A stretch of 64,000 nucleotides of DNA, taken from NCBI GenBank assembly GCA_963791835.1, contig CAWBTV010000007.1, forward strand, positions 941,807-1,005,806, written 5' to 3'. Of the stretch, positions 1,258-52,684 are shown piece by piece. The first letter of the stretch is position 1. The number at the start of each line of letters is the position of its first letter. A program made the translations under genes and the position numbers. A model generated the notes under the pieces. It saw nothing but the letters and a program-made list of their open reading frames with translations, made no database searches and was not told where the DNA came from. Origin of the DNA: an uncultured Chloroflexia bacterium (GTDB lineage Bacteria; Chloroflexota; Ktedonobacteria; Ktedonobacterales; Ktedonobacteraceae).

Positions 1258-1317
1258 AAAAGTGTCTACAGGAAATGCGTTGCATTTCCTGTAGACACTT
1301 TTTTAGATGTTCTGCAT
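1243..1317. repeat. 75-bp perfect palindrome (36-bp arms, 3-nt centre) spanning the stop codons and last 4 codons of two convergent genes; bidirectional terminator-like
   Basis: Left arm 1243-1278 is the exact reverse complement of right arm 1282-1317. The arms include ATGCAGAACATCTAA (MQNI*) of both flanking ORFs, with an A-tract and T-tract inside. Confidence 0.85.
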
Positions 1318-2992
1318 TACCAATTCTGCCACAATTTTGCCTGACAACATCACCAATGGCACACCACCACCGGGATGGGTGCTTCCTCCTACAAAGTAGA
1401 GATTACATATTTCGGATGTGTTGCCAGGGCGTGTGAAGGGTGCCATACGTGAGTTCGAGGAGAGGCCGTAGATTGAACCTGCATTCGCACCATATTTATC
1501 ATAGAAGTCCTGGGGGGTGAGCATAGTCTCACAGACAATATGCTCTCGCAGGTCGCTCAGGTCTACTTGTTTATAACTTGCGAGCAGGTCGAGAATACGC
1601 TCACGATATGCGGGTGCTTCGCGTTGCCAATCGCTTTTTGATGTGAGATAGGGCGCGTTGACCAGCACAAACAGGTTTTCGTGTCCTGGGGGTGCCTGTG
1701 TCGGGTCGCTACGCGTGGTAGCACAGACATAGATCGTTGGATTGTTCAAGGGTACATGGCGTTCAAACAGGTCGTCAAACTCGGCGTGATAGTCGTCGGA
1801 GAAAAAGATGTTGTGATGCGACAATTGCGGATACTGCTTATCGAGACCGAGCAGCAAGACAAAGCCAGAGCAGGACGGCTCTAGCTGTTCCAGGCGTTGC
1901 ACACGTCTTCTGTTGCGTATCGCTGGCGATAGCAGTTCGCGATGCGTTGTCACGACATCGCTATTGGCGATCACGATATCACTCCGTAGCACACGCCCGT
2001 CTGCCAGCACAACACCACGAGCAGTATTTCGCTCCACAAGAATACGCTGTACATTACAGCATGTCTCAATCGTGACATCCAATTCACGCGCAACTCGTTC
2101 TAATGCCTGTGCTACCGCATAGATACCACCACGCGGATACCAACCACCATCGGCAAGCTCAACATAGGGAATGATGCGATAGACTGAGGCAACTTGATAT
2201 GGTGAAGACCCGTTATAGGTTGCGTAACGATCAAACAACTGACGTAAGTGCTCATCCTCAAAAAAGTTGTGTACACTCTCATCTAAGGTCTGTGGTGAAA
2301 GGGCGGCAAGGACAGCTTTTAGACGCGAAAGGAGGGTGGAGGGGGGTATATTATTCGTAGGGACCAGATTTATCGCGTCCGTAGGCGATTTATCGCGCGA
2401 GATGCCTTCATGTTCATGTCGTTCTTTGTGTGATCTATAGGCGATAAATCGCCTACGGACGCGATAAATCTGGTCCCTACGACCATCTGGATGTCCTCGT
2501 AACACATAACGTACAAACGTCCTCAAAACATTCGAGCGGACTACCTAAGCTATGATAGAGAAACGGGTCTGCCGCAGCTTGAAAGATGTTATAAGCCGAA
2601 TCAAAGAAGTGCAAGAAGGTGGTGCCATCATGTAGATTGAGTTGTGCAAACTCCTGGGCTAGTCGCTCGTGGTCACGCCATGCATTGAGTATCAGGCCGT
2701 CATGATAAAAGTAACGGCATGTGATGTCGAGCGGAATCAGATCAAGATAGTCTTTGAGATTGCGTTGAGCCGATTGGAAGAGGTCTTCGAGGACGTAAGG
2801 CATGGTGATAAGTGATGGACCTGTATCGAAGCTAAAGCCGTCTATCTGGATAGAATTAAGTTTTCCGCCAACCTGTGCCTGTCGCTCTAAGATGGTGACA
2901 TGATGACCCTGTGCTGCTAAGCGAATGGCTGCTGAGAGACCACCAATACCCGCTCCTATGACGATAATGCTCTTATGTTTGGATGTAGACAC
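1303..2992 (-). pseudogene. CrtI/CrtD-family FAD-dependent carotenoid desaturase split into two ORFs by a 124-bp MITE (2357-2480)
   Basis: N-terminal fragment (2481-2992) has the Rossmann motif IIVIGAGIGGLSAAIRLA. The C-terminal fragment (1303-2356) has CrtI-like GGWYPRGG and a C-terminal GGSTHPGGG. The fragments are in different frames. Deleting exactly 2357-2480 restores one 521-aa ORF. Confidence 0.7.
2357..2480. mobile_element. MITE-like palindromic element, family A (GTAGGGACCnnTTTATCGCGTCC terminal inverted repeats), nested inner repeat
   Basis: Terminal inverted repeats gtagggaccagatttatcgcgtcc / ggacgcgataaatctggtccctac. The same termini recur at least 9 more times in the window. Confidence 0.75.
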
Positions 2993-3065
2993 GCTTGTTT
3001 ATACCTCGTTTGTTTTCGTTATTATAGTGATGTTATTATAGGTGATAAATGGGTAGGGGGTTTAT

Positions 3066-3818
3066 ATGATACCTGCACACAAATTTCCGCTCGGCGAATA
3101 TCTCGTCGAGGGCTTGATAGATGGCTCGTTCCGCAAATATTTTGACCGCATCCATTATCGGCAATATGGGACATATACGGATGAGCAACGGGCGTTACCG
3201 ATGATTATCTGTGCCAATCATTCGACATGGTGGGATGGCTATGTGGCGTTACTGGTGGCGCGTCAACTTGGTGTTGATCCGTATTTGATGATGGAAGAAG
3301 CACAGTTGCGCCGCTATTTCTTTTTTCGCTGGATTGGCTGCTTTTCGGTAGACCGACAGAATGCACGCTCAGCTATGCAGTCTCTGCAATACGCAGCCCG
3401 TATGCTTAAAGAGAAACAAGGACGTATGGTTTGGCTCTTTCCGCAGGGCGAGATTTCACCAAATGATCGTCGTCCGTTTGAATTTTTTACGGGTGCGGCA
3501 CATCTCGCACGCCTGACCACGACGAGTCTTGTTTATCCGCTTGCGATACGCATCGAATATCTCGCCGAACAACGACCTGATCTTTTTATTAGCCTCGGCG
3601 AACCCTTATGCGTTGATGCAGAGATGGCGCATACTCCTGGTTTCCTCAAACATTGTACGCATCAGCTAGAGGGTATGGTGACAGCCGAACTCGACCAGTT
3701 ACGTAGTGACATTGTAGCAGGGGATTACTCGTCCTTCACGTTGTTGATGCGTGGCACATCTTCGACAAACAGGATATTCGACTCGCTCTTACTGCGGAAA
3801 CAGATTGGCAGGCAGTAG
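3066..3818 (+). CDS. Lysophospholipid/PlsC-family acyltransferase (CruD-like carotenoid-glycoside acyltransferase candidate)
   Basis: HX4D acyltransferase motif NHSTWWD. Strong RBS GGGTAGGGGG upstream. Context with the CrtD-like and GT2 genes. Confidence 0.7.
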   Translation: MIPAHKFPLGEYLVEGLIDGSFRKYFDRIHYRQYGTYTDEQRALPMIICANHSTWWDGYVALLVARQLGVDPYLMMEEAQLRRYFFFRWIGCFSVDRQNARSAMQSLQYAARMLKEKQGRMVWLFPQGEISPNDRRPFEFFTGAAHLARLTTTSLVYPLAIRIEYLAEQRPDLFISLGEPLCVDAEMAHTPGFLKHCTHQLEGMVTAELDQLRSDIVAGDYSSFTLLMRGTSSTNRIFDSLLLRKQIGRQ

Positions 3819-3820
3819 AG

Positions 3821-5143
3821 ATGATGAGATTGTTCATAGAAAATGCCTGTAGGGGTCTAATTCATCACACCCTGTTGGCAATGAACCATGCCGGAGAATA
3901 TGGAAAACGTTTAATCAATATCTCACAAGTTTGTTTATCGCCAATAGGGTGTAATGAATTAGACCCCTACAGATACGTTGCCGCACTCGTACTTTGTATT
4001 CTTATCATCCTATTCGCTATCCTCATCATCAACCTGTTCACGTTTTATCGTCTACGACCTCATATTGAGACACAAAACACAGAACAGCCGCTTGTCTCTG
4101 TCCTGGTGCCAGCACGGGATGAAGCGCAATCTATCGAGCGATGTGTGCGTTCGTTGGTAGCCCAAACATATGAGCGATTAGAGATACTTGTATTGGACGA
4201 TCATAGTAGTGATGCGACGGCAACAATTGTGCAGAGCATCATGGATGAATTGCCTGTACAGCAACAAGGAAGGGTACGACTGTTGCAAGGCGAGGAGTTG
4301 CCGTTGGGATGGGGTGGCAAAAACTTTGCATGTCATCAACTGGCACAACACGCGACAGGGAACTATTTGTTTTTTACGGATGCTGATACTGTTCACGACC
4401 CTAAGATGATTGCATCCGTAGTTGATTGTATGCAAATCCGTAAGGTTGCATTGCTCACAGCACAACCAACCTATGAACTTGATAGTATAGGAGAACGTCT
4501 TGTCGTACCGCTCCTCACCTTTACCATTATGACGCTGCTTCCTGTGGCCCTTATTCCTGTGCGACCGGAGCCAAGTCTTGCTACGGGTAATGGACAACTG
4601 TTGTGTTTTGAACGTTCCGCATACGAACATATTGGTGGACATTCGTCGGTGAAGAATCGCATTTTGGAAGATGTGTTACTGGCACGTGCGGTCAAGGCGG
4701 CAGGCTTGCGTATGATTTTTGTGGATGCACAAGACCTTGTGCGTTGTCGCATGTATCGCTCGTTCGCGGAGGTCTGGTCGGGCTTCTCGAAAAACCTGTT
4801 CGCGTTTTATAACTATGCGTTACCCTTCGCGCTTATCGGACTTGTGCTAAATATCCTACTTTTTATTGTGCCAGCATTGCTCATTTTATCAGCCCTATTT
4901 ATACCATTCTCGTTTCCGACATTGCTTTTGGCGACAGGTGCCTATGCGCTTCCTGTCGTGATGCGCATGTTATTAACGCTGCGCTTTACACAGACGCAAC
5001 GAGGGTTGATGCTTTTGCTGTGTCTGCTGCATCCCGTTTCGATTGCGCTTGAATGCCTGATTTTGCTCAATTCGATACGCTGGCATTATCGTAAAGAGGG
5101 AACGGTGTGGAAGGGTCGGCAATATGTGACTTATCAGAAATGA
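3821..5143 (+). CDS. Family-2 glycosyltransferase with C-terminal multi-TM domain (CruC-like); true start uncertain because a MITE occupies the 5' end
   Basis: GT2 motifs VLVPARDE...LVLDDHSSD...FTDADT. Residues about 9-50 of the ORF are encoded by MITE D1, which contains an in-frame ATG at 3881. Confidence 0.7.
   Translation: MMRLFIENACRGLIHHTLLAMNHAGEYGKRLINISQVCLSPIGCNELDPYRYVAALVLCILIILFAILIINLFTFYRLRPHIETQNTEQPLVSVLVPARDEAQSIERCVRSLVAQTYERLEILVLDDHSSDATATIVQSIMDELPVQQQGRVRLLQGEELPLGWGGKNFACHQLAQHATGNYLFFTDADTVHDPKMIASVVDCMQIRKVALLTAQPTYELDSIGERLVVPLLTFTIMTLLPVALIPVRPEPSLATGNGQLLCFERSAYEHIGGHSSVKNRILEDVLLARAVKAAGLRMIFVDAQDLVRCRMYRSFAEVWSGFSKNLFAFYNYALPFALIGLVLNILLFIVPALLILSALFIPFSFPTLLLATGAYALPVVMRMLLTLRFTQTQRGLMLLLCLLHPVSIALECLILLNSIRWHYRKEGTVWKGRQYVTYQK
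3848..3969. mobile_element. MITE-like element, family D (GTAGGGGTCTAATTC terminal inverted repeats)
   Basis: gtaggggtctaattcat...atgaattagacccctac. Related copies at 15983-16130 and a remnant at 10963-10997. Confidence 0.7.
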
Positions 5144-7369: not shown

Positions 7370-7780
7370 TTACTTGGTATTCCGTTCTACGCTCGTACAC
7401 CACAAGGCCCATGAGATAAACACGGCTTGAAAGGGCAAGCGTCCCCACATGTAAATCGGTGAGTTCATGAAGCCACCTAGCTTGATATTTGCGACAGCTT
7501 GATAGACGTTGGCAGGAAAAATTCCGACAAGAAGCGCGACCAGGCCCCATGCCGATGCGCGTTGTACTTTGCGGTTGGGGATGAATAGGCCAACACCACC
7601 GAGAAATTCAAGGACACCTGTAATATAGAGTGCCTCACGCCGAAAAGGTAAGAACGGTGGAATGATTTTCAATTCCGCTTCACGCGCCGTAAAGTGCATG
7701 GTAGAGGCAAGAATAAAGAGAATACCCATTGTGAACCGTGCAAGTGTTTTCCATAGACGGGGTGAAGAGAGGTTACGCAT
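7370..7780 (-). CDS. DoxX-family membrane protein
   Basis: Four TM helices and DoxX-like sequence pattern. Confidence 0.6.
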   Translation of the reverse strand: MRNLSSPRLWKTLARFTMGILFILASTMHFTAREAELKIIPPFLPFRREALYITGVLEFLGGVGLFIPNRKVQRASAWGLVALLVGIFPANVYQAVANIKLGGFMNSPIYMWGRLPFQAVFISWALWCTSVERNTK

Positions 7781-8645
7781 ACAATTTTTTCCTTTTTATA
7801 AAAGATAATCCCACTAGAACCAGTCCAGCAAGTATACCAAGCAGTGCGGCCCAATAATAGCCGTGCGTGATATCGACCAGCCCAAACATAAAGAGGCTTG
7901 CGCCAAAGAGAATACGTGGCGTTAATAAAACAAGTCTATAAAATGGCAGGGAGACCGCAAGGGTCTCCCCTGCATTTTCGCGATACCCTCCATATAGGGG
8001 AGACCCTTGCGGTCTCCCTGTTTCCCGAAGTACTCTATCGACGAGTAAGAGTAGTATGAAGGCGACGACGAACCATGCCGCGAAATTTGCTAATGGCACA
8101 GCATAATAGTTGATAGGTCCGGGGGCAAGCCACTCCCAGTAGTGTTCCAGGTGGGCGGCGACAGGCTCAATTTCTAAGTCCAAGAGTGTCGCGAGTGCAG
8201 CACCCAATAATGCACCAGATACGCCAAGAGGCCGCTTTTCCGCACGTATCCAACCATAAGCCCCGAACACAATCAGTACCCACGCGAACATGACAGCCAT
8301 TGGGACTCCAACCGGCAGGCTGGGAAAAAGTACATCGGTATAACGATAAAGGCCAAAGGGAAAGCCTGTTCCTACCCCTATGGCCTCAACGATGTAAGAG
8401 AGAGTGATAACAAGCAAGCCTGCACATACACCACGCAGCCAACCATACTGTAAGCTTGCCGCCACAATGAGTAACATGCCTTCGAGGAAAAGCAGCGCAC
8501 TTCCAGCCCATGCCAGCGAAAAGGGCGGATGCACATCAAAGGCAACACCAGTTACAGCTATCGGATACGCAATACAAAATATGCCGAAAAGCACGAGAAA
8601 GATGCGTGGCCCCCATTTGAAGGTTGAATGTTGCTCAAATGTCAT
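7773..8645 (-). CDS. Polytopic membrane protein, possibly carotenoid 1,2-hydratase CruF-like (DUF422); contains an in-frame MITE (family E) insertion
   Basis: Seven or more TM segments. Sits in the locus with CrtD-, CruC- and CruD-like genes. Residues RETGRPQGSPLYGGYRENAGETLAVSLPF are encoded by repeat 7946-8019. Confidence 0.5.
   Translation of the reverse strand: MTFEQHSTFKWGPRIFLVLFGIFCIAYPIAVTGVAFDVHPPFSLAWAGSALLFLEGMLLIVAASLQYGWLRGVCAGLLVITLSYIVEAIGVGTGFPFGLYRYTDVLFPSLPVGVPMAVMFAWVLIVFGAYGWIRAEKRPLGVSGALLGAALATLLDLEIEPVAAHLEHYWEWLAPGPINYYAVPLANFAAWFVVAFILLLLVDRVLRETGRPQGSPLYGGYRENAGETLAVSLPFYRLVLLTPRILFGASLFMFGLVDITHGYYWAALLGILAGLVLVGLSFIKRKKLYA
7946..8019. mobile_element. MITE-like element, family E (two inverted copies of GGGAGACCGCAAGGGTCTCCC hairpin flanking a 24-nt spacer), translated in frame
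   Basis: Left 7946-7971 and right 7996-8019 are reverse complements. A single-hairpin relative lies at 52685-52749. Confidence 0.7.
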
Positions 8646-10033
8646 ACATTGCCACCCTGCACGGCTGCAATTCCTCGTGCATAGGCTGCTGTTTTTGTAA
8701 TGAGTGCAACTGCACCGTTGCTTGTGTCCAGAGCATAGAGCATACCATCAGAGTAGAATGTCGCAGTAGAGTTGCTAATCCAGGCTCCTAATTCAACAAA
8801 AAGGTCCGTCGAGTTTGCAAGCAATTGTGGCTTTCCCACAATTGGCTGTCCAGCAGAACTCCCGGTATGCACCATGTATACGGCATTGTGACGGTCAAAA
8901 GGAGTTTGGGCATCGCTCGAAAACACAATGTATAAGAGCGAGTGACTATCGGGTGCAAATGTCGGCGTTGTCACCCAATGATAGGCTGCGTTGTTACTAA
9001 GATCGTGCTGTTCGGGCAAAATCATGGATGTGTTTTGCAGTACAGGGTGATTAGCATCCGAAGAAACACCGATATGTGCAAGAGAAAGACTGTTTGCATA
9101 GTTGAGTGCCGAGATATCGCGTGGCACGCTTGAGTCATCGGTCGCAGGAACAACATCTTGCTTGGTCGAGTATAAAAGCGTCGTGCTATCAGGAGAAAGT
9201 GCCAATGGCCCCTGTGATGCATCGTCCGCAAGCAGTTCGAGTGGGTCTTCGAGAGGGGTAGTGGTGAGGCTCAGGCTCCACAAGCCATAATGTACAGCTT
9301 GATGGTCGCCTCGATCATCGGTAAGTAACAACGTCGAGTTTGGCTGTACCCCTTTGCCTTGCCAGAACGCAAAGACACGATAGCAGGGACAATCTGCTGC
9401 ATTATGTTGGTAAATTGGTGCGGATTTTTCTAACGGACCAACATAGAGCGTATTGTTACCAATCCCGTTCGCGGGTTCAGTACTCCATGCAACCGTTGTG
9501 CCATCGTTACTCAATATCATTGAAGTAATCACCTGCCCTGCTGGTAGCGTTGCAATTTGTTTCGGCATACCATTAAATATATCGGTGAGCCAGAGACCAT
9601 TGCCACTATAGAGAAGTTGACCCGAAGGCGTAATAAGTGGTGGGGCTGAGAGATTATAGATATAGCCAGGAGTTGTCAACACTGTCGCAAGTCCACCTGC
9701 AAGCGGAACAATAGAGATATTTTTAGGTTGCTGGTATACAACATATTTGTCCGTGGGAAGTGTAAGTTGTGGTGCTGCTGCCTGTCCAGGTGGGAGTAAA
9801 GGTCCAACATCTTTATCTGAATTGACAGTTGGCGTTGGACGAGGCACGGTACTCGTTCTGCGTGCTACCACCTGGGACAAGTTCCAGAATAACTGACCTG
9901 TAAAAAGCAAGAAAAGCATTCCAACAAGCACAAGTAACACAAATATTGCCTTTTTAGAAACAGGGCTTGAATGTGGTGATAATGGGAATGAAGCCTGTTC
10001 TGATGGAGGAGGGTTTTGTACTTGTTGTGTCAC
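8642..10033 (-). CDS. Membrane-anchored protein with TolB/PD40-like beta-propeller repeats
   Basis: N-terminal TM (IFVLLVLVGMLFLLF) followed by repeats such as LYSGNGLWLTD and TTLLYST. 4-nt overlap with the upstream gene. Confidence 0.5.
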   Translation of the reverse strand: MTQQVQNPPPSEQASFPLSPHSSPVSKKAIFVLLVLVGMLFLLFTGQLFWNLSQVVARRTSTVPRPTPTVNSDKDVGPLLPPGQAAAPQLTLPTDKYVVYQQPKNISIVPLAGGLATVLTTPGYIYNLSAPPLITPSGQLLYSGNGLWLTDIFNGMPKQIATLPAGQVITSMILSNDGTTVAWSTEPANGIGNNTLYVGPLEKSAPIYQHNAADCPCYRVFAFWQGKGVQPNSTLLLTDDRGDHQAVHYGLWSLSLTTTPLEDPLELLADDASQGPLALSPDSTTLLYSTKQDVVPATDDSSVPRDISALNYANSLSLAHIGVSSDANHPVLQNTSMILPEQHDLSNNAAYHWVTTPTFAPDSHSLLYIVFSSDAQTPFDRHNAVYMVHTGSSAGQPIVGKPQLLANSTDLFVELGAWISNSTATFYSDGMLYALDTSNGAVALITKTAAYARGIAAVQGGNV

Positions 10034-10058: not shown

Positions 10059-10862
10059 TTATGCGGTCTGGTCGCCTTGAGCAGCCTGTTCTAGCTTCTG
10101 GACATGATGTTGCACAAAGGCAATCGTTTTGGCAAAGACCTCTTCGCGGTCATGGTCTTTCATGATGACATGATACGAACGATGGAATGTTACCAGATGT
10201 TTCTCTTGCGAACCGAGGAGACGGTAAATCGCGCGTCCATCTCGTGCAGGCACCACATGGTCACGCACCGAGGCCATGACGAGGGCAGGTGCGGTAATCT
10301 GTCTCAACTCGTTACGCAACCGAGGCAAGAAGCGAAGCATACTTTCAACGGGAGCCATCGGGGTCCAGCGATAGACATCGCGCGTATAACGACGCCGTGC
10401 CTCCGGGTCGCGTACATCTTCGCGCAATGTTGGTAACAAGGGAGTTACACGTTTCGCGAGTTGAATCATGGGCATCATCCATGGATGCATCGTGATGGGA
10501 GCACACATGGTCACAATACCGGCCACCTCTTCGTGTGCTGCGGCATGGAGACACAGGGCACCACCGAGGGAATGTCCGATCAGAAAGACAACATCACAGC
10601 GTTGCTTGAGTGCATGCAATTCTTCGCGTACCGCCTCAGCCCATTCAGGCCAACCAAGTGGCAACATATCCCGTACATGGCTTCCATGACCGGGTAGCAA
10701 GATATTTTCTGTCACCATCCCCTGTGCATAAAAAAGATCATTGAGTTCTTCCATATCATGCTTGCTTCCATTCAGCCCATGCACAAGCATAACACCAACT
10801 TTTAGCTTTGTGTTGGATGTCGTCTGTTGCTCCGTCTGTTGTAGTGGGGATGTGTTACCCAT
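10059..10862 (-). CDS. Alpha/beta-hydrolase (carboxylesterase/monoacylglycerol-lipase-like)
   Basis: Nucleophile elbow GHSLGG, with the HG oxyanion motif VMLVHGLNGS. Confidence 0.75.
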   Translation of the reverse strand: MGNTSPLQQTEQQTTSNTKLKVGVMLVHGLNGSKHDMEELNDLFYAQGMVTENILLPGHGSHVRDMLPLGWPEWAEAVREELHALKQRCDVVFLIGHSLGGALCLHAAAHEEVAGIVTMCAPITMHPWMMPMIQLAKRVTPLLPTLREDVRDPEARRRYTRDVYRWTPMAPVESMLRFLPRLRNELRQITAPALVMASVRDHVVPARDGRAIYRLLGSQEKHLVTFHRSYHVIMKDHDREEVFAKTIAFVQHHVQKLEQAAQGDQTA

Positions 10863-10962
10863 TTTCGTGTTCCCTTGTGTTTACATATCCGCCGCTATTC
10901 TATCTTATAGCATACCATATTGGATGCGTGAAATGCCCACTAGCCGCATACGATAATTAACG

Positions 10963-10997
10963 AATTGTAGGGGTCTAATTCATTAACCCCTACAATT
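10963..10997. repeat. Family D MITE remnant (solo terminal repeat gaattgtaggggtctaattcattaacccctacaattc)
   Basis: Shares the GTAGGGGTCTAATTCAT terminus with D1 and D3. Confidence 0.55.
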
Positions 10998-11112
10998 CAC
11001 GATCCATTCGTTACAGGAATAATTCCGCGTACATTTTTGGTTACATTAGTATGAACATCAGTCCTTATTTGTTGTACTTTTTCAGACAGAATGCTATATT
11101 TTTCCCATCCTA

Positions 11113-11182
11113 TAGGGACCGAGTTATCGCGTCCTTATAACACATGCAAGAACAGACAAGGACGCGATAAATCGGTCCCTAC
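11113..11182. mobile_element. MITE-like element, family A
   Basis: tagggaccgagttatcgcgtcc...ggacgcgataaatcggtccctac. Confidence 0.7.
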
Positions 11183-11213
11183 ATTTGACGCGCTCATTCT
11201 ATTAGGAGTTATT

Positions 11214-12350
11214 ATGAAATTTTCGACGAAAGCCATTCACGCGGGGCAAGAGCCAGACCCATCAACGGGCGCGATTATGACCCCCATTTATCAGACATCA
11301 ACCTATGCTCAGACGGGGATGGGAGAACATAAAGGGTTCGAGTACGCCCGTACAGGGAATCCAACACGGAGCGCATTGGAAGCATGTATCGCGGCCCTAG
11401 AGAACGGCACACATGGTCTTGCATTCGCAAGTGGTATGGCAGCCGAGAGCGCGGTTTTGAGCTTGTTGAGTGCTGGCGATCATATGATTTCCTGCGACGA
11501 CCTGTATGGTGGCTCATATCGTATCTTTGAACGCATCATGCGGCGTTATAATGTCGAAACGAGTTATGTTACGGCAGGCAACGTTGCGGAGTACGAGAAG
11601 GCTATTCGTCCCAACACCAAACTTATCTGGTTAGAGACTCCTACCAACCCACTACTGCGGCTTGTGGATATTCGTGCGGTGGCAGAGATAGCTCATCGCC
11701 ACAATCTGCTGCTCGTCGTAGACAACACCTTTTCAAGCCCCTACTTTCAGCAGCCCCTTGAACTAGGTGCGGACATCGTGTTGCACAGTACCACAAAATA
11801 TATCAATGGACATAGCGATGTCGTTGGTGGTGCTGTAGTTACCAGCAATGAAGAAGTCTATGAGGCTCTCAAGTTTCATCAAAATGCGGCTGGCGCGGTT
11901 CCTGGTCCTTTCGATGTGTGGCTCACCATGCGCGGTATCAAAACACTTGCGGTACGGATGCGTCAGCATGAAGAAAACGCGTATTCTGTCGCACGCTTCC
12001 TGATGGAACATAAGCGTGTAGAAAAAGTATATTATCCAGGCTTGCCATCGCATCCCGATCATGAGTTAGCCAAACAGCAGATGAGTGGCTTCGGAGGTAT
12101 GGTCTCCTTTCAAATCAAAGGAACGCTTGCCGATGTAGAGCAAGTGGTACGCCGTTTCAAGGTCTTCACCTTTGCCGAGAGTCTTGGCGGTGTAGAGTCG
12201 CTGGTATGTCATCCCGCGACCATGACGCATGGTTCCATTCCAAAAGATATTCGTGAAGCTCGTGGACTTGGTGACACCCTGCTACGCCTGTCTGTCGGTA
12301 TCGAGGATATCGAGGACATTTTGGGCGACCTTGAGCAAGCTTTAGCGTAA
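11214..12350 (+). CDS. Cys/Met-metabolism PLP-dependent enzyme (cystathionine gamma-synthase/beta-lyase family)
   Basis: MKFSTKAIHAGQEPDP...STTKYINGHSDVVGG (PLP lysine motif). The long ORF 11091..12350 is trimmed because its first 40 codons are encoded by MITE A2. Confidence 0.85.
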   Translation: MKFSTKAIHAGQEPDPSTGAIMTPIYQTSTYAQTGMGEHKGFEYARTGNPTRSALEACIAALENGTHGLAFASGMAAESAVLSLLSAGDHMISCDDLYGGSYRIFERIMRRYNVETSYVTAGNVAEYEKAIRPNTKLIWLETPTNPLLRLVDIRAVAEIAHRHNLLLVVDNTFSSPYFQQPLELGADIVLHSTTKYINGHSDVVGGAVVTSNEEVYEALKFHQNAAGAVPGPFDVWLTMRGIKTLAVRMRQHEENAYSVARFLMEHKRVEKVYYPGLPSHPDHELAKQQMSGFGGMVSFQIKGTLADVEQVVRRFKVFTFAESLGGVESLVCHPATMTHGSIPKDIREARGLGDTLLRLSVGIEDIEDILGDLEQALA

Positions 12351-12361: not shown

Positions 12362-12420
12362 TGCCAAAAAGCTATTGACTCAGCGTACATGTTGTACGCT
12401 GAGTCAATAGCTTTTTGGCA
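12362..12420. terminator. 59-bp perfect palindrome (28-bp arms) downstream of the PLP-enzyme gene
   Basis: tgccaaaaagctattgactcagcgtaca-tgt-tgtacgctgagtcaatagctttttggca. Confidence 0.7.
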
Positions 12421-15982: not shown

Positions 15983-16130
15983 AATACGAAACGTCCGTAG
16001 GGGTCTAATTCTATTACACCCTTGTGGCAATGAACAATCTTGGAAGAGAATGAGAATTGTTACAACATCCTCCCAAATTGTATATTGTTTACAGGGTGCA
16101 ATAGAATTAGACCCCTACGGACGTTTCGTA
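15983..16130. mobile_element. MITE-like element, family D with extended terminal repeats (ATACGAAACGTCCGTAGGGGTCTAATTC)
   Basis: Outer 28-nt terminal repeats are perfect reverse complements. The internal sequence is related to D1. Confidence 0.75.
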
Positions 16131-16137
16131 TCCTAAT

Positions 16138-17263: not shown

Positions 17264-17334
17264 TTAATAAAGCTTACTTCTGAAGATGTTGTTTCAAGAT
17301 AAAGGATGCTAGCAACAAAGAAAGGTTGCAACCT

Positions 17335-18642
17335 ATGAGTAATGTTTTATCCTATAAAGCTATTCCGACCGTTGCGATTCCGGCGGATTATCAAACAAAT
17401 GTTGGACCGTTTCTCGCGAAGATGTATGAGCAGCATGGACCAATCTTTCGTTCAACGTCGTTTGGTAGTGAGGTTGTCTTCCTGGTCGGACCGGAGGCGA
17501 ACCGCTTTGTGCTGGTCAACAATCGCCAAAAGTTTTCAAACTACGAGGGTTGGGGCAAGATGTTTGGCACACTCGATATGTTTGGGAGGGGTTTGCTTGT
17601 CATGGATGGCAAAGAACATGACGACCATCGGCGCATGATGAACCCGGCCTTTACCATCAGCTATATGAACAACTACCTGCCATTGATGAATCGCATTATT
17701 CGTGAACGAGTGGCGACATGGGCAGAGCAAGGCACGGTAGACATCTATGATGAAGCACGCAAAATCACGTTTGATGTTGCCGCCGAAGCACTCGCCGGAC
17801 TGACTGATGTCGCAGAACGTGACCTGTTCCGTGACCTTTTTTTACGTCTACTTATGACGGGCGCGACGGCAACATCCGAGGAAGACTTTTTTCATAAAGT
17901 CAGTCTCATTCGCGGTGAACTCAACGCCCTGCTCACGCCAAAGATCGAAGAACGTCGTCAGCATCCAACAAACGACCTCTTCGGATTGCTTGTACAGGCA
18001 CGAGACGATGCAGGTAACGCGATGAGCAACGAACAACTGATTGCCCATCTCAACATCCTGCTTGTCGCTGGACATGAAACCTCGACCAGTCTCAGTACAT
18101 GGTTGCTCTACCTCTTAAATCAGCATCAAGACTATACGAAACGCGTGATGGATGAGCAGAATGCATTACTTACATCAGGGGCAGAGCCAACATTAGAAGG
18201 GATTAAACAAATGAAGGTGTTGGATAACGCGTTAAGCGAGGCTGAGCGTATGTATCCACCTGTCGCTAACGGGCCACGTGGTCTTTTTGAAGATGTGGAC
18301 TTTCACGGTTATCACCTGCCCAAAGGCACACCTGTTCTTTATGCTATCGCGGGTTCACACATGATTCCGAGCATTTTCGCGCATCCTGAAAGCTTCGATC
18401 CAGACCGTTTCGCTCCACCGCGTGAGGAACATAAAAAGACACCTTACGCTCTTGTTGGCTTCGGCGGAGGTCCACGTATCTGTATCGGCATCAACTTCGC
18501 GCAAATCGAAATCAAAGCGATGGTCTCGCACATTCTACGCAACTACCAATTAGACTTGATTCCGGGACAGCAAATTCTCCAGTACTATGGCGTCACGGGT
18601 GCGCCAATCAATGGTATTGGTATGCGCGTTACCGCGAAATAA
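17335..18642 (+). CDS. Cytochrome P450
   Basis: Heme loop FGGGPRICIGINFA, I-helix AGHETS, ExxR. ATG at 17335 with AAAGAAAGG upstream. Confidence 0.85.
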   Translation: MSNVLSYKAIPTVAIPADYQTNVGPFLAKMYEQHGPIFRSTSFGSEVVFLVGPEANRFVLVNNRQKFSNYEGWGKMFGTLDMFGRGLLVMDGKEHDDHRRMMNPAFTISYMNNYLPLMNRIIRERVATWAEQGTVDIYDEARKITFDVAAEALAGLTDVAERDLFRDLFLRLLMTGATATSEEDFFHKVSLIRGELNALLTPKIEERRQHPTNDLFGLLVQARDDAGNAMSNEQLIAHLNILLVAGHETSTSLSTWLLYLLNQHQDYTKRVMDEQNALLTSGAEPTLEGIKQMKVLDNALSEAERMYPPVANGPRGLFEDVDFHGYHLPKGTPVLYAIAGSHMIPSIFAHPESFDPDRFAPPREEHKKTPYALVGFGGGPRICIGINFAQIEIKAMVSHILRNYQLDLIPGQQILQYYGVTGAPINGIGMRVTAK

Positions 18643-18681
18643 TATGTAGTCAGGTGCTAGGGTGCCCGCAAGGGGACGCCC

Positions 18682-18746
18682 TGGTCGATGTATCGCGTCC
18701 TTGTTGGCAGTCGATTGCTCAAAAGGACGCGATACATCGGTCCCTA
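18682..18746. mobile_element. MITE-like element, family A (degenerate left terminus)
   Basis: ...ggtcgatgtatcgcgtcc...ggacgcgatacatcggtccctaa. Confidence 0.55.
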
Positions 18747-18781
18747 ATGAATATTGACAACCAAAAACGGGAATTCTTCTC

Positions 18782-18909
18782 GGTAGGGGCAGCAATTCAT
18801 TGCGCCCAATGATGGGGGCGGCGAGGCAACGTGTCGGCAACGATTCACGCTCCCAACGCGAACCCCTCTCGCCCCCATCATTGGGCGCAATGAATTGCTG
18901 CCCCTACCG
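18782..18909. mobile_element. MITE-like element, family B (GGTAGGGGCAGCAATTCATTGCGCCCAATGATGGGGG terminal repeats)
   Basis: 36-nt terminal inverted repeats. The core cgtgtcggcaacg is shared with the family A interior. Further copies at 60254-60383 and a chimera at 46829-46949. Confidence 0.75.
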
Positions 18910-24055: not shown

Positions 24056-25231
24056 ATGCCACCATTTTCATTTACAATTGACGCCGAATGTCCTGATACA
24101 TGGGCGCGTGCTGGCACCATTCAGACACCACACGGCACGATTTCGACGCCTATCTTTATGCCCGTAGGCACACAGGCAACGGTGAAGAGTGTCGCACCTG
24201 AAGAACTTCATGCAGCCGGGGCGCAAATTATTCTCTCCAATACCTATCACTTAATGCTCCGTCCAGGCTCCGAATTGGTCGCTGATTTTGGTGGTCTCCA
24301 TTCGTTTATGCATTGGGATGGTCCAATTCTGACTGATAGCGGCGGCTTCCAGGTATGGAGTCTGGGCCATTTACGTAAGTTGAGTGAAGATGGCGTGACG
24401 TTTAAATCGCATCTCGATGGTTCAGCCCATACGCTTACACCCGAACGTGTAATGCAGATTGAGGCAGAGCTGGGCGCGGACATCATACTTCCGCTCGACA
24501 TCTGTGCTCCCTACCCATGCGCACCCTTAGAGGCACAGGCCGCGATGGAACGAACGCATCGCTGGGAGGAACGTGCGCTACTTGCCAAAGAACGCTATAA
24601 TCCAGCACAGGCCCTGTTTGGGATTGTACAGGGAGCATTTGAACCTGAGTTACGGAGACAGAGCGCGGAAATCATCGGCAATATGCCTTTTCCGGGTCTC
24701 TCTATTGGTGGGCTTTCTGTTGGAGAACCGAAAGCGATGATGTGGGATATGCTCAATGTCGTCACACCTGCACTACCTCGTAACAAGCCACGTCACCTGC
24801 TCGGTGTTGGTTCACCAGAAGACCTTGTGATAGGTGTCGGGCTAGGTATGGACATGTTTGATTGCGTTCTGCCCACACGCGTTGCCCGACACGGGGGACT
24901 CTTCACGCGTCAGGGTCGTGTTAGTATCAAGGGGGCACGTTTTCGAGCCGAACACAATCCCGTCGAGGTCGGCTGCGATTGCTACACGTGTCGTAACTAT
25001 AGCGCGGCCTACGTCCATCATCTAGCACGTACCGAAGAGCAACTCTATTATCGTCTCGGCAGCATTCACAATATTCGTTTTATGTTGCGTCTCGCGAGTG
25101 AACTACGTGCAGCCATTCTTGCCGGAACCTATACAGCGTTTCGTGATGAGTTCTTAGCAACCTACATGCCCGCATCCGAACAGGTACGCGAGGCGCAACG
25201 CGAAAAATGGAAGATAGCGCGTGGCAGGTAG
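24056..25231 (+). CDS. tgt: Queuine tRNA-ribosyltransferase
   Basis: TPHGTISTPIFMPVGT...LTDSGGFQ...CDCYTCRNYSAAYVHHL (zinc site). The stop TAG lies inside the terminus of MITE A4. Confidence 0.9.
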   Translation: MPPFSFTIDAECPDTWARAGTIQTPHGTISTPIFMPVGTQATVKSVAPEELHAAGAQIILSNTYHLMLRPGSELVADFGGLHSFMHWDGPILTDSGGFQVWSLGHLRKLSEDGVTFKSHLDGSAHTLTPERVMQIEAELGADIILPLDICAPYPCAPLEAQAAMERTHRWEERALLAKERYNPAQALFGIVQGAFEPELRRQSAEIIGNMPFPGLSIGGLSVGEPKAMMWDMLNVVTPALPRNKPRHLLGVGSPEDLVIGVGLGMDMFDCVLPTRVARHGGLFTRQGRVSIKGARFRAEHNPVEVGCDCYTCRNYSAAYVHHLARTEEQLYYRLGSIHNIRFMLRLASELRAAILAGTYTAFRDEFLATYMPASEQVREAQREKWKIARGR

Positions 25232-25330
25232 GGACCGATTTATCACGTCCTGGGGGTGGGGTGGGGCAGCGTGTCGGCGACGATGTGTTTGCCCCACCCC
25301 ACCCCCAGGACGTGATAAATCGGTCCCTAC
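25228..25330. mobile_element. MITE-like element, family A (inner G-rich palindrome); its GTAGGG terminus supplies the tgt stop codon
   Basis: gtagggaccgatttatcacgtcc...ggacgtgataaatcggtccctac. Confidence 0.75.
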
Positions 25331-27791: not shown

Positions 27792-27792
27792 C

Positions 27793-27857
27793 AAAAGAGC
27801 AGAGAGTGTACATTATGTCCTGATTCTCAGGACATAATGTACACTCTCTGCTCTTTT
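27793..27857. terminator. 65-bp perfect palindrome (31-bp arms) one nt after the stop codon
   Basis: aaaagagcagagagtgtacattatgtcctga-ttc-tcaggacataatgtacactctctgctctttt. Confidence 0.7.
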
Positions 27858-28009
27858 GGAAAATTATACTTGACTTATTTGGAGAGGGTCTCTATAATCA
27901 AAATAGAGACCAAAAAAGATATGGTCAAGAAAGCACACGGACTTATAAAAATGCTCAGCTACAAACAACCAGTACAACAGAATAGCTTTTATTATTGGTT
28001 TAGCCCCCC

Positions 28010-29215: not shown

Positions 29216-29241
29216 ACAGGCACGTAAAGCGAGTTCACTAA

Positions 29242-29341
29242 CATGACAGGGGCAAGCCCAGTCACTACTATACACGGAACCGCCTGGCTTCGCCCCACAG
29301 GGGCGAACAGTATAGTAGTGACTGGGCTTGCCCCTGTCATG
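29242..29341. mobile_element. MITE-like element, family C (CATGACAGGGGCAAGCCCAGTCACTACTATAC terminal repeats)
   Basis: 32-nt terminal inverted repeats. Further copies at 50119-50205 and 54480-54578. Confidence 0.75.
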
Positions 29342-29482
29342 TTGGCAACATCGGCTTCAACAGCTTTTACATGTCGATTTTCTCTCGACTCATCTTAAAC
29401 AGTATGATATACTCTGTGTACGTAGAGAGGGATTGTTTGTAATACTTGGTCGGGATAGACCAAAGGCTTTGAGGTGAACACG

Positions 29483-30136: not shown

Positions 30137-30207
30137 TGTAGGGACCGATTTATCGCGTCCTCTTGCGATATCAATTATCGGTGAGGACGCGATAAATCGG
30201 TCCCATT
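30137..30207. mobile_element. MITE-like element, family A
   Basis: gtagggaccgatttatcgcgtcc...ggacgcgataaatcggtccc. Confidence 0.7.
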
Positions 30208-31217: not shown

Positions 31218-32783
31218 ATGCCTTTAGACAGGAAAGACTCAGGCTCTACCTGGCAAGCTCCTCCAACATATAAGAACACTGAGTTTCAGCCAGACGCGCC
31301 CTGGGAACCAGACGACGATGAAATGGATATTCCATCAATTCAGCAGGAACAGGAAATTCCAACGGTTCCAACAGCTATCAATAGCATTCATATTGGAGCA
31401 AACGACCCGGTTGAAAACGAAAGTGAAGAAGCAGTGACCACTGGACGCACTGCACTCATGAGCCAGATTGGTCGTTATTCCTCATTCATCTTGGCCCCAC
31501 TGCTCTTTGCGGGGCTTACCAGTCTGATTGTGTTGCCAACAGTCGCTATTGGTCGTGCCAATTTACCACCGTCAACACTTTTCCCCCTTGCAATTATTAT
31601 CCTGGCGATTGCCCTTGCTCAGGGTGTCGCAACGTATTATACTGATACCACAAGCGGTTTATGGGCTATTTATACTGTTGCAGGCTTTTTCCTTTTTATG
31701 CTTGTCGGCTGTTTCGCGCTCTTTGGTGCCGTTCCGGGTATCATTCTCCTACTCATCCTTGTCGTTCTCTCTATTTTTCTCGCACGACGCTACATTCATC
31801 CAGTGGCAGAGGAATATGTGGATATTGTGCGCTCATTTGGAAAATACAAGCGCACACTCTACCCAGGCTTCAATATCCTGTTGCCGTGGGAGCAAATTTC
31901 GCATCATCTGAGTACGGCTGAAACAATTTGGAAAACGCCTATACAGCGTGTGCAGATGACACGTGACGAGGATGTTGTATTGCGTGGCAGTATGAGCTAC
32001 CAACTATTGCCAGAAGATGCGTATCTTGTGACAGGTGTAAAAAACTGGGAAGAGAGTTTACAAGACATTTTCGTCGCATCACTACAATTAGTTGCGAAGA
32101 CCTTTACACCCGAAGATTTCATTGCATGGCCTCAGGGGATGTATACTCGTCCTACACACGGAAGCGCGATGCCCCTTTCTGAGGGTGAAACTCGCTGGGA
32201 ACAGGTCAATGGGCAAGTCTTGCAGCGAGTGCGAGACCGTGCCGCACTTTGGGGTGTGCAGATTAACGAGGTTCGCCTCTATGATATTGCTCTTGCTCCA
32301 CATGGGCATGGATTACAAGATGAAATAACAGAGCCAATCGCACCAAAAAAGGGAGGAGCGGCGATTCCTCAACAGGCAGCGCCTGCGTTTCAGCCAGTTC
32401 CTCATCCTCAGCCAGTAGCGGTACAGCCACCACAACCCAAGCAGCCTACACCACCACAGCAAGCGGTAGCGAATGTCCAGGTTCCAAAGGGGCTAAAAGA
32501 AGAGACGTTACGTAAAGCATACACCGAAGTAAAGAATGGGAATATCAAAGAACCGGAAACCATTCGCAACCTTGCGGCCCAATTTGAAGCCGTTGCCAAT
32601 AATCCAGAACTGAATAACGCGTTTACCTTTGATGCAAGAAGAGCGGCGATTAACTTGTATGCGGAGGCAGATAGACGACAGGAAGAGGAAGAAGCCAATG
32701 CTGGTACGCTCTTCACGGATGAAACAAAAGTTGATTGGCCCAGACGCCGTGCGACCGATGAAAATATCATGAGTGGGGGGTAG
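31218..32783 (+). CDS. SPFH/band-7 domain membrane protein with Pro/Gln-rich C-terminal region
   Basis: N-terminal TM helices. SPFH-like VRDRAALWGVQINEVRLYDI. Start set at ATG 31218, downstream of the preceding gene's stop. Confidence 0.6.
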   Translation: MPLDRKDSGSTWQAPPTYKNTEFQPDAPWEPDDDEMDIPSIQQEQEIPTVPTAINSIHIGANDPVENESEEAVTTGRTALMSQIGRYSSFILAPLLFAGLTSLIVLPTVAIGRANLPPSTLFPLAIIILAIALAQGVATYYTDTTSGLWAIYTVAGFFLFMLVGCFALFGAVPGIILLLILVVLSIFLARRYIHPVAEEYVDIVRSFGKYKRTLYPGFNILLPWEQISHHLSTAETIWKTPIQRVQMTRDEDVVLRGSMSYQLLPEDAYLVTGVKNWEESLQDIFVASLQLVAKTFTPEDFIAWPQGMYTRPTHGSAMPLSEGETRWEQVNGQVLQRVRDRAALWGVQINEVRLYDIALAPHGHGLQDEITEPIAPKKGGAAIPQQAAPAFQPVPHPQPVAVQPPQPKQPTPPQQAVANVQVPKGLKEETLRKAYTEVKNGNIKEPETIRNLAAQFEAVANNPELNNAFTFDARRAAINLYAEADRRQEEEEANAGTLFTDETKVDWPRRRATDENIMSGG

Positions 32784-32846
32784 CTATCGACGCAATAAAA
32801 TACGCGTGTGCTTTGGCACACGCGTATTTTATTGCGTCGATAGCTA
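32781..32846. terminator. 66-bp perfect palindrome (31-bp arms) running exactly from the TAG stop of the + gene to the CTA (TAG) stop of the convergent - gene
   Basis: tagctatcgacgcaataaaatacgcgtgtgc-tttg-gcacacgcgtattttattgcgtcgatagcta. Confidence 0.8.
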
Positions 32847-33365
32847 CTTTTTCACAAGTGTCGAAGCAACCTTTTCGGCGTTCCCTTCGTCCATCGTGCG
32901 GAGAGCGGCAACGGCTTCATTCGAGATAACTTTGCTTACTTCGGGATCAAACACCACGTCGTCACGCTTGCAATAGCGAAGTTTGTTCCAGGCAGCCGTA
33001 GCACGATCCCAGGCAGGGAAACGCTCTGTTGCCTCGGCATCACCCTTGACGACCCGTTGGAAAGCGTTGTAGGAAACAACAAGCGCGGTCACAATACTGA
33101 TGAATGTTAAAGCGACAAGCACAATCATCCAGAATGGATTCAGGCTTGCTTCCAACCCTCCAATCAGCACAATGATAAGAAAGATGCAAATACCTACGAG
33201 GACGCCACACGCGATGATATATGGCATCATTGATATGTTTCTTGTTGGCATATCTGGTGGCGCAGCACGCGACACACCTGATTCATATGCGGCCTGCATC
33301 GTCATGACCATATCATTTTGATGACATACAGGACAGGTTGGTTTTTCTGCTTCAGTCGTTGCCAT
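32844..33365 (-). CDS. Hypothetical membrane protein with N-terminal CxxC zinc-ribbon-like motif
   Basis: CPVCHQ motif. Two TM helices. No known family recognised. Confidence 0.5.
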   Translation of the reverse strand: MATTEAEKPTCPVCHQNDMVMTMQAAYESGVSRAAPPDMPTRNISMMPYIIACGVLVGICIFLIIVLIGGLEASLNPFWMIVLVALTFISIVTALVVSYNAFQRVVKGDAEATERFPAWDRATAAWNKLRYCKRDDVVFDPEVSKVISNEAVAALRTMDEGNAEKVASTLVKK

Positions 33366-43561: not shown

Positions 43562-44494
43562 ATGGACAGAGGAATGATGCAAAATTTTTCAGCACACATC
43601 GTCATTTCGGACGAAGTACAAACCGCGCTACACGAGCAGAGGCCAGTAGTCGCACTTGAGTCTACCGTCATCGCACATGGGCTGCCCTATCCTGATAATG
43701 TCACGGTGGCACAGGCGATGGAGGCAACTATTCGGCGTGAAGACGCAGTACCAGCCACGATTGGTATTTTCAATGGGAAGATTGTCGTTGGACTGGCACA
43801 GGATGAAATTCTACAGCTTGGTACCGCTCCTGTTGTGCAAAAAGTCAGTCGCCGTGACCTTGCTGTCACGCTGGCAACACGCCAACTGGGGGCCACAACG
43901 GTTGCGGGAACGATGCTTTGTGCAAGTATGGTTGATATTCGCTTTTTCGCGACGGGTGGTATTGGTGGGGTTCATCGTGGAGCCGAGACGAGCATGGATA
44001 TCTCAGCCGACCTGATCGAGTTGAGCCAGACGCCTGTACTGGTGGCCTGTGCTGGCGCGAAGTCCATTCTCGACCTCGACCTGACGCTTGAATATTTAGA
44101 GACGCATGGTGTACCCGTTGTGGGCTGGCAGACCGATGAATTGCCCGCCTTTTATGTGCGTCATAGTGGACGCCGCCTGACGCATCGCGTTGATGATGTA
44201 GCTGTAATAGCCGATATCGCACGGACGCAATGGGAACTTGGTCTGCATGGTATTGTTGTAGGCTGTCCCATCCCTGAACAGTATGCAATGGACGCCGTAC
44301 CCTTAGAGCGTGCAACAGAAGAGGCATTGCAACTCGCAAAACAACAGGGTATACAGGGATCCGCAACGACGCCATTTCTGCTCTCACATGTCGCGAAGGT
44401 GACTGCTGGCGAAAGCGTTGAAGCTAACAAAGCCTTGTTGCTCAATAATGCTATGTGGACGGCACGTTTTGCTAACGCGTATTACAACATGTAG
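43562..44494 (+). CDS. psuG: Pseudouridine-5'-phosphate glycosidase
   Basis: Indigoidine_A/PsuG family motifs (VVALESTVIAHGLPYP, ATGGIGGVHRGAE, VLVACAGAKSILD). The stop TAG lies inside the terminus of MITE A7. Confidence 0.85.
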   Translation: MDRGMMQNFSAHIVISDEVQTALHEQRPVVALESTVIAHGLPYPDNVTVAQAMEATIRREDAVPATIGIFNGKIVVGLAQDEILQLGTAPVVQKVSRRDLAVTLATRQLGATTVAGTMLCASMVDIRFFATGGIGGVHRGAETSMDISADLIELSQTPVLVACAGAKSILDLDLTLEYLETHGVPVVGWQTDELPAFYVRHSGRRLTHRVDDVAVIADIARTQWELGLHGIVVGCPIPEQYAMDAVPLERATEEALQLAKQQGIQGSATTPFLLSHVAKVTAGESVEANKALLLNNAMWTARFANAYYNM

Positions 44495-44566
44495 GGACCG
44501 ATGTATCACGTCCTTTCCTTGTCAGCATGTCAATCGCCAAAGAGGACGTGATACATCGGTCCCTAC
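44491..44566. mobile_element. MITE-like element, family A; supplies the psuG stop codon
   Basis: gtagggaccgatgtatcacgtcc...ggacgtgatacatcggtccctac. Confidence 0.7.
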
Positions 44567-44762: not shown

Positions 44763-45152
44763 GTGAATAATCCACTAGAAATACGCAAGGTCATTGGCGG
44801 CGTTCTTCTTACGCTTATCTATGTCTGCTGCTTCTTATTTATCAAATCTTCGTTGGTGATAGACTGGGTGGGAGATGGTAGCGTCACCACAAGCCTCATT
44901 CTATTGGTGGCGGTTATTGGCCTTCTTGTCTTGGTCTTCTATCACATTCTCTATCGGTCCAGTCCAGAAACAACAAAATTAAGCCTGACAGCATCACTGA
45001 CACTCTTGTGGCTCGCGCTGATCATTTTTTATCCATTCCAGCCTCTACAGGCAGGTCAGAATGATGGCTCGGTTGGTTTCTTCGCCCTCATCGGCGGTCT
45101 TGCTGTCTGTGTTCTCTGGGTTCGCTTCTTCTCAGACGAGATTATTGCATAA
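44763..45152 (+). CDS. Hypothetical small membrane protein
   Basis: Four TM helices. GTG start with GAAAGGAG RBS. Confidence 0.5.
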   Translation: MNNPLEIRKVIGGVLLTLIYVCCFLFIKSSLVIDWVGDGSVTTSLILLVAVIGLLVLVFYHILYRSSPETTKLSLTASLTLLWLALIIFYPFQPLQAGQNDGSVGFFALIGGLAVCVLWVRFFSDEIIA

Positions 45153-45214
45153 AAGAATAGAACAACAAAGATGCCAACCGCTCGCGGTTGGCATCTTTGT
45201 TGTTCTATTCTTTT
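45151..45214. terminator. 64-bp perfect palindrome (30-bp arms) bridging the TAA stop of the + gene and the TTA (TAA) stop of purH
   Basis: aaaagaatagaacaacaaagatgccaaccg-ctcg-cggttggcatctttgttgttctattctttt. Confidence 0.8.
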
Positions 45215-52673: not shown

Positions 52674-52684
52674 GCCCTTTTATG

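Follow-up and report, generated by a model that had tools for sequence, protein, structure and literature searches.

An in-frame GTAG-type palindromic repeat dimer in a loop of a CruF-like membrane protein of the Ktedonobacteraceae

The cruF-like locus

The DNA analysed here, referred to as the window, is a 64,000 nt stretch of contig CAWBTV010000007.1 (assembly GCA_963791835.1, positions 941,807 to 1,005,806) from an uncultured bacterium of the family Ktedonobacteraceae (Chloroflexota). It encodes a cruF-like polytopic membrane protein whose open reading frame (ORF) passes through a 74 bp palindromic element, family E, which is interpreted below as an inverted dimer of repetitive extragenic palindromic (REP) units (Table 1). 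A previous reading of the same DNA, made from its letters and ORFs only, had placed this palindrome at 7946-8019 and described it as a MITE (miniature inverted-repeat transposable element) translated in frame within a candidate CruF-like hydratase. The palindrome was found to be real and to lie one base further along, and its two 25 nt arms are 100% complementary within an intact ORF. The gene overlaps its upstream neighbour by 4 nt and its downstream neighbour by 8 nt.

The predicted protein matches PF04240 (Caroten_synth) with an E value of 2e-28 and 100.2 bits against a gathering cut-off of 25, and all 159 relatives recovered by a database search carry this domain; those that are named belong to the Ktedonobacteraceae. 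The Pfam alignment ends at residue 209, which is the start of the insert, and the NCBIfam alignments also end at the insert. The protein falls far below all three NCBIfam equivalog cut-offs for CruF (74.3 against 154.7 for TIGR03460, 42 against 300 for NF041333 and 34.8 against 400 for NF045693). Because of these scores the enzymatic assignment is taken from the Pfam family and the gene context only, and the protein is regarded as a putative carotenoid 1,2-hydratase (CruF) whose substrate and reaction would be those of the family. What it has in common with the CruF family is the PF04240 match and the synteny with crtD-like, CruG-like and acyltransferase genes; the CruF-like label therefore holds for the family and fails at the level of the equivalog. 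The proposed carotenoid tailoring locus was recovered, with the crtD-like, acyltransferase and CruG-like glycosyltransferase family 2 (GT2) genes at 1303-5143. A PDB sequence search with the family profile returned no relative of solved structure.

Table 1. Features of the cruF-like locus and other palindromes in the 64,000 nt window.
Feature	Position	Strand	Remarks
cruF-like gene (PF04240 Caroten_synth)	7773..8645	-	290 aa, ATG start, intact
Helix 6 coding region, residues 185-207	8025..8093	-	directly before the insert; AlphaFold
Helices 7 and 8 coding region, residues 229-289	7779..7961	-	conserved, purifying selection; AlphaFold
Palindromic element, family E, interpreted as tail-to-tail GTAG-type REP dimer	7947..8020		74 bp
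Arm 1 (CAGGGAGACCGCAAGGGTCTCCCCT)	7947..7971		own hairpin GGGAGACC-GCAAG-GGTCTCCC at 7949-7969
Spacer	7972..7995		24 nt, variable among family members
Arm 2 (AGGGGAGACCCTTGCGGTCTCCCTG)	7996..8020		
DoxX-like gene, downstream	7370..7780	-	overlaps cruF-like stop; operon context
PD40-like gene, upstream	8642..10033	-	4 nt overlap on cruF-like start; operon context
crtD-like amino oxidase (desaturase)	1303-2992	-	carotenoid tailoring, same syntenic locus; split into two ORFs
Second in-frame palindrome, family A (GTAGGGACC...ATTTATCGCGTCC), in crtD-like gene	2355..2482		128 bp, 42 nt perfect arms
Acyltransferase	3066-3818	+	carotenoid tailoring, same syntenic locus
CruG-like GT2	3821-5143	+	carotenoid tailoring, same syntenic locus
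Other abundant palindromic families, examples	11113-11181, 25228-25330, 30141-30204, 44491-44566, 61734-61813		
Other abundant palindromic families, examples	18781-18909, 60253-60383		
Other abundant palindromic families, examples	29240-29343, 50116-50208, 54479-54580		

An insertion read through in frame

The element is read in frame as codons 209-233 (T209-L233, 25 codons; TGRPQGSPLYGGYRENAGETLAVSL). Close orthologs of 269-272 aa have a loop of 12 codons at this place compared with 31 codons in the window. The loop DNA measures 93 nt in the window and 36 nt at the empty site of locus L127, which makes the net gain 19 codons. Short loops such as LFRAYIPSRPSSK are found in P0006, P0007, P0010, P0012, P0015, P0018, P0020 and L127, whereas the window has RETGRPQGSPLYGGYRENAGETLAVSLPFYR; in a 30-sequence alignment the segment from LLLLVD to PRILFG reads, for example, LFRAYAPVLSSSK in the 269-272 aa orthologs and RVLRETGRPQGSPLYGGYRENAGETLAVSLPFYR in the window. 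Because of these empty sites, the extra residues are read as an insertion in the cruF-like gene and not as a native loop. The alignment thus bears out the insertion that the sequence-only reading had predicted, as orthologs free of the element have short loops in place of its residues, and it corrects the size: about 26 residues (24-26 in an alignment) had been expected, the element covers 25 codons and adds a net 19, and the peptide quoted for it was 29 residues long.

The reading frame passes through the element because five of the six frames of the family-E unit are free of stop codons and because the total length added to the gene is a multiple of three. How this length came about differs between lineages. 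In L121 and L129 the left flank is 24 nt and the element length is itself a multiple of three; in the window and L001 the left flank is 7 nt and the element is 74 nt, so that the loss of 17 nt from the flank is balanced by two extra element bases and the downstream frame is unchanged. The left arm is consequently read as GRPQGSPL in the window and L001, compared with QGDRKGLPY in the other frame. Since these compensated indels keep the downstream frame, they are direct evidence of selection for the C-terminal helices.

Downstream of the insert, residues P243, L246, S250, L251, M253-L256, T260, H261, Y263 and Y264 are invariant in 30 orthologs. Over the 48 codons after the loop, the window differs from L002 by 16 synonymous and 7 non-synonymous codon differences and from L120 by 14 and 7, and synonymous differences were in excess in ten of ten pairwise comparisons. 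On this comparative evidence the part after the insert is homologous to the same family and under purifying selection; owing to the strong conservation and the synonymous excess it is neither a decaying remnant nor fortuitous read-through, and the latter was ruled out. At least ten lineages have an intact cruF-like gene with an insert.

A confident AlphaFold model, computed from 96 homologs, has eight long helices (pLDDT 87, pTM 0.87; predicted local distance difference and template modelling scores). Residues 208-228 form a coil of low confidence (pLDDT ~54) between helices 185-207 and 229-260, in agreement with the earlier view that the insert sits between hydrophobic segments and is followed by transmembrane helices. 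The first residues of helix 7 (LAVSL) come from the last codons of the element, and the C-terminal helices are confidently folded against the rest of the protein. Counts of Lys and Arg give a positive charge to both termini, to loops 66-71 and 134-140 and to the loop with the insert, and not to the loops that hold most of the invariant residues (36-43, 94-115, 167-184 and 261-263); under the positive-inside rule, the loop with the insert would probably be cytoplasmic and opposite the conserved face. The length of the helix 6-7 loop ranges from 9 to ~120 residues among orthologs. The inserted peptide itself shows no constraint, as five of the eight spacer-encoded residues differ between the window and L001.

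The family-E repeat

At least 115 DNA stretches in the species-representative genome collection contain the exact 21 nt arm of the element, nearly all of these stretches being from metagenome-assembled genomes (MAGs) of the Ktedonobacteraceae or Ktedonobacterales; among the matches listed, the assemblies CAXUGH, CAXUHG, CAXUHF and CAXUIS have tens of arm copies per MAG. None of 100 dinucleotide-preserving shuffles of the window produced a match to the arm. The related loci examined contain 26 inverted doublets of 61-77 nt and 107 single arms; three longer entries are interrupted by N runs or extra sequence. A clustered count gave 127 family-E sites with 89 single arms and 29 '+-' doublets. Among the doublets, the arms and the CA...TG ends are conserved, and no relationship is seen between the spacers of different copies.

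REP units follow the rule of a GTAG or GTGG tag located 0-2 nt 5' of a fully paired stem of 7-20 bp with a loop of 2-5 nt (PMC6006769). The consensus of the family-E unit, T-GTAG-GGGAGACC-CTTGC-GGTCTCCC-TG, has an 8 bp stem (GGGAGACC/GGTCTCCC) and a 5 nt loop (GCAAG or CTTGC), and in 117 of 164 arms the next bases are CTACA, so that GTAG adjoins the stem on the other strand. The tag is found at the level of the family, the window copy being degenerate, with ATAG at 7994-7997 (consensus GTAG) and the complement CTGC, or GCAG, at 7970-7973 (consensus CTAC). Copies are numerous and mostly intergenic, 110 of the 127 sites lying outside any long open frame. As in REPINs (REP doublets forming hairpins), the window copy is an inverted pair, with fully complementary arms around a 24 nt spacer and a 25 bp RNA hairpin of -61 kcal/mol (z = -8.7), and because the GTAG tags of the two units face inward, the dimer is tail-to-tail.

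For family E the name GTAG-REP tail-to-tail dimer (REPIN-like) is more apt than MITE, since no target-site duplication flanks any of the 26 doublets and a GTAG tag adjoins the 8 bp stem. Of the earlier 'MITE family E', the repeat family therefore stands, on copies in related genomes only, and the MITE label does not. With one substitution in each of its two GTAG tags, the window copy is probably an immobile fossil.

Occupation of the loop across lineages

Family E is present in the same loop in L001 (P0002), L121 (P0005) and L129, with homologous right flanks, and 16 of the 24 spacer positions (67%) are identical between the window and L001. Because of these flanks and this spacer identity, family E at the loop points to one ancestral insertion, in an ancestor common to at least three other Ktedonobacteraceae lineages. 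At the same loop, family F (CAGGGCGCCCGCAAGGGGACGCCCCTCCCATAC) is found in L119 and L120, and family G in L122, L123, L126 and L124. The 'short' ortholog in L002 has a 13 nt remnant of the F right arm and is therefore a deletion derivative. Among more distant lineages, L125 has a ~130 nt family-A element, L146 a different perfect 26 nt GTAG palindrome and L144 a remnant, and these are independent insertions. Across lineages the loop is thus occupied by four or more GTAG-type families that are unrelated to each other (E, F/G, A and the L146 type).

The gene tree and the distribution of E, F and G disagree: over 4.3 kb, L001 (E) shares ~94% DNA identity with L119 (F), and within the gene L121 (E) is 89% identical to L122 (G). 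A single clean insertion history is ruled out by this discordance; the families may have replaced one another or turned over at the site, a composite cluster present in an ancestor may have been sorted, or lineages may have recombined. A by-eye comparison of the loops suggested an apparent remnant of a G-type half arm beside the E element of L121. Across these copies the REP stems match their family consensus, while spacer, tags and flanks drift. It is possible, although we hold it only tentatively and rather doubt it, that the DNA of the helix 6-7 loop is a site of repeated REP colonisation and turnover as opposed to a single frozen accident.

Interpretation and alternatives

The reading favoured here, with a probability of about 0.8, is that a non-autonomous, GTAG-tagged REP dimer landed in the DNA of the helix 6-7 loop, that the frame stayed open and that the encoded peptide is a tolerated passenger. 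The dimer inserted in an ancestor, the frame runs through it, and the two C-terminal helices are retained under purifying selection. The peptide would be a disordered extension, by a net 19 residues, of a loop that naturally varies in length, and would persist because it is tolerated and not because it is useful. Mobilisation by a REP-associated tyrosine transposase (RAYT) is assumed by analogy only.

Several observations weigh against this reading. The 64 kb window has only one family-E copy; the other match to the arm, at 52706, has three mismatches and forms the tip of an unrelated 30 bp hairpin. A tblastn search of 1.3 Mb of related DNA with an approximate E. coli RAYT query gave one weak match (E 0.003), an ORF that by eye resembles a nucleotide kinase and not a RAYT, and the ORFs flanked on both sides by family-E arms looked by eye GroES-like, possibly glyoxalase-like or like repeat translations, with no transposase look-alike among them. 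RAYTs are single-copy genes, and a 1.3 Mb sample is small for finding one. The arms of the window and L001 are identical at 50 of 50 positions, with 84% identity in coding DNA and the lower spacer identity given above. The crtD-like gene of the window is split into two overlapping ORFs on the minus strand (2477..2992 and 1303..2526) by one extra A near 2531 (GAATG, compared with GATG in L001), ~30 nt upstream of its family-A palindrome, and this 1 nt frameshift could reflect decay of the pathway in this organism or an assembly error. Translation of the insert is itself deduced from comparative evidence; candidate tryptic peptides of the insert-bearing protein are PQGSPLYGGYR and ENAGETLAVSLPFYR.

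The arm identity would be accounted for if the element were kept for its DNA or RNA structure and the peptide were a by-product, for instance through ribosome pausing during membrane insertion, as an RNase or terminator site reducing the expression of the downstream doxX-like gene, or through protein binding. The stable hairpin is consistent with such a role, as are the F-type copies of L119 and L120, which differ from each other by one pairing-preserving change in each arm. So is a terminator-like match on the coding strand, where a scan detected the hairpin at 7948-7970 (the arm 1 region) followed by GCCATTTTAT; however, the T-rich tail is missing in the orthologous L001 copy, so this match was treated as incidental and an internal intrinsic terminator was not retained. 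Furthermore, L002 has lost nearly the whole element and the right arm of the L129 copy is disrupted, yet both genes are intact, and different families occupy the loop in different lineages. The arms of the window and L001 also equal the family consensus and are not merely each other's complement, which is the expectation from gene conversion by other copies. Drift cannot explain the identity; gene conversion or sequence-specific selection could. A structural role is regarded as unlikely. Rfam returned only sub-threshold matches of the element to animal microRNA precursor models, such as any long hairpin gives.

The small size of family E, its perfect terminal inverted repeats with conserved CA...TG ends and its abundance would also fit a classical MITE, that is, a deletion derivative of an insertion sequence (IS) moved in trans by a DDE transposase recognising its terminal inverted repeats. 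This origin is considered quite unlikely for family E: in addition to the missing target-site duplications, the flanks are often inverted and not direct repeats of each other, and in many copies the palindrome runs on into unique flanking sequence; single arms outnumber doublets in both counts; each unit is a GTAG-tagged, REP-like hairpin; and spacers that are unrelated between copies are unlike the internal sequence of an IS derivative.

It is very unlikely that the insertion inactivated the protein, or that the gene is becoming a pseudogene whose open frame is a leftover. The split in the neighbouring crtD-like desaturase gene, the location of the insert within a polytopic membrane protein and the Pfam and NCBIfam alignments that stop there would fit such a loss; against it stand the frame that is open over all 290 codons, the synonymous excess downstream in all comparisons, the frame-restoring indel pair common to the window and L001, the intact insert-bearing genes of other lineages and the confident packing of the C-terminal helices in the AlphaFold model. 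Finally, a native lineage-specific loop with a coincidental palindrome, for which only the variable loop length of the orthologs speaks, was rejected as having a negligible chance of being correct, given the repeat copies elsewhere, the empty sites and the shuffles.

Other in-frame repeats and palindromes

At 17 of the 127 family-E sites in the related loci an open frame runs across the site and continues for 50 codons or more to either side, and several of these sites outside the cruF-like gene have Pfam domains on both sides or spanning them. In an ABC transporter (L053) the site falls in the linker that joins the membrane domain to the ATPase domain, and in L031 and L071 it falls in the linker of two ABC domains; further sites lie just after the Pyr_redox_2 domain of a 1178 aa redox protein (Pyr_redox_2/FHA/Fer4; L051) and inside a Cu-oxidase_4 domain (L018).

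A second gene of the locus, the crtD-like gene, behaves as the cruF-like gene does, having a loop with in-frame REP-type elements. Its family-A insertion is also present in L001 (in the region of about 10428-12122); at the same spot the ortholog in L122 has F/G-type units, and that in L124 has two F-type arms in direct orientation (L124:13099-13202).

A block of genes (AraC regulator/(SnoaL)/isochorismatase/DUF2721) lies between cruF-doxX and GT2-acyltransferase-crtD in the window, L120 and L123. It is absent from L002, L121, L122 and L124, and L001 has DUF2721 alone; the carotenoid locus is therefore interrupted by inserted genes in some lineages.

Repeat-derived peptides also bear on annotation. 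The strings GRPQGSPL, GETLAVSL, QGDRKGLPY and RDKSGPY in Ktedonobacteraceae proteins should be taken as derived from repeats. The annotated N-terminal extensions of P0019 (L125:10001-11050), P0021 and P0028, for example HDRGKPCHYNT, translate a CATGACAGGGGCAAGCCC...CACTAC repeat, and the true start codons of these proteins probably lie further downstream, the calls having been extended across an intergenic repeat.

The window has other palindromes as well. Long, perfect and unique ones were located at 1243-1317, 12362-12420, 27792-27858, 32780-32847, 45150-45215, 48926-49000 and 52684-52748; these seven have arms of 28-37 nt that are 100% complementary with loops of 1-5 nt, and are far longer than ordinary terminator stems. 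The last has a family-E-like core at its tip, GGAGACC-GCAAG-GGTCTCC, with no GTAG, and in the family-E doublets of other MAGs the palindrome likewise often continues into unique flanking sequence. The window also contains at least three further abundant palindromic families, GTAGGGACCGATTTATCGCGTCC (11 arms within 2 mismatches), GGTAGGGGCAGCAATTCATTGCGCCC and CATGACAGGGGCAAGCCCAGTCACTACTATAC (examples in Table 1); as GTAGGGACCGATTTATCGCGTCC and GGTAGGGGCAGCAATTCATTGCGCCC begin with GTAG, these two are probably also REPs. A single F-type unit (GGGTGCCCGCAAGGGGACGCCCT) at 18660-18682 lies 18 nt past the stop of ORF 17326..18642, the usual position of a REP. The longest inverted repeat in the window, at 15984-16131, has 64 nt arms that are 83% complementary and a 20 nt spacer.

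Relation to known repeats

GTAG REPs have been described as mostly intergenic, occurring as single units or as inverted dimers 20-100 bp apart, with variable spacers in the tail-to-tail dimers and with some dimers located inside longer palindromes (Di Nocera, De Gregorio and Rocco 2013, PMC3733652). The same paper reports GTAG repeats in the Chloroflexi (Thermomicrobium roseum), as well as intragenic dimers that encode 20-30 residues; such intragenic copies were proposed to be neutral, being in linkers or loops. Family E resembles these repeats in its GTAG directly 5' of a short G+C-rich stem-loop, its single units and inverted dimers and its variable spacers. It differs in belonging to another sequence family, in a host clade (Ktedonobacteraceae) outside that paper, in occupying a loop of a polytopic membrane protein, and in that several REP families are found in that same loop.

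Like REPINs (Bertels and Rainey 2011, PMC3116915; PMC3337134), family E is numerous per genome and persists at orthologous positions. REPINs are described as extragenic, whereas the window copy is coding, and the link that defines REPINs, to a single-copy RAYT gene with the same REPs on either side, did not turn up in the 1.3 Mb searched. The likeness to Rickettsia palindromic elements (RPEs) drawn in the sequence-only reading is sound insofar as the insertion is in frame and the host gene is intact and under purifying selection. RPEs (Ogata et al. 2000, 2002), as far as they are summarised in PMC10969869, are in-frame palindromes in unrelated genes that encode extra, fold-compatible surface segments; as first described they are ~150 bp long and found in Rickettsia, whereas family E is 74 bp, consists of GTAG-REP units and is found in a free-living Chloroflexota lineage with large genomes. 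The two are likened by description only.

None of the 18 papers listed in which Ktedonobacter and 'palindromic' occur together deals with such repeats, and among the papers listed none pairs Ktedonobacter with a REP, REPIN, RAYT or MITE term. The family and its host clade are new. The kind of element is already known and in-frame palindromic insertions are documented, which leaves the recurrent occupation and turnover of one loop as the sole part that goes beyond the literature.

Significance

If the loop is indeed colonised and turned over repeatedly, an active, sequence-directed process would be operating inside a coding region, be it REP-targeted insertion, precise excision or gene conversion, and REPs would steadily supply Ktedonobacteraceae proteins with new loop variants. 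The helix 6-7 loop is in any case a natural map of where CruF-type proteins tolerate insertions, which helps the tagging and engineering of a family that is without a solved structure. The series of sites at this loop, comprising an empty site, an intact dimer, a frame-shifted and compensated copy, a disrupted arm, a near-complete deletion and occupation by other families, provides a compact record of the birth, tolerance and erasure of such insertions.

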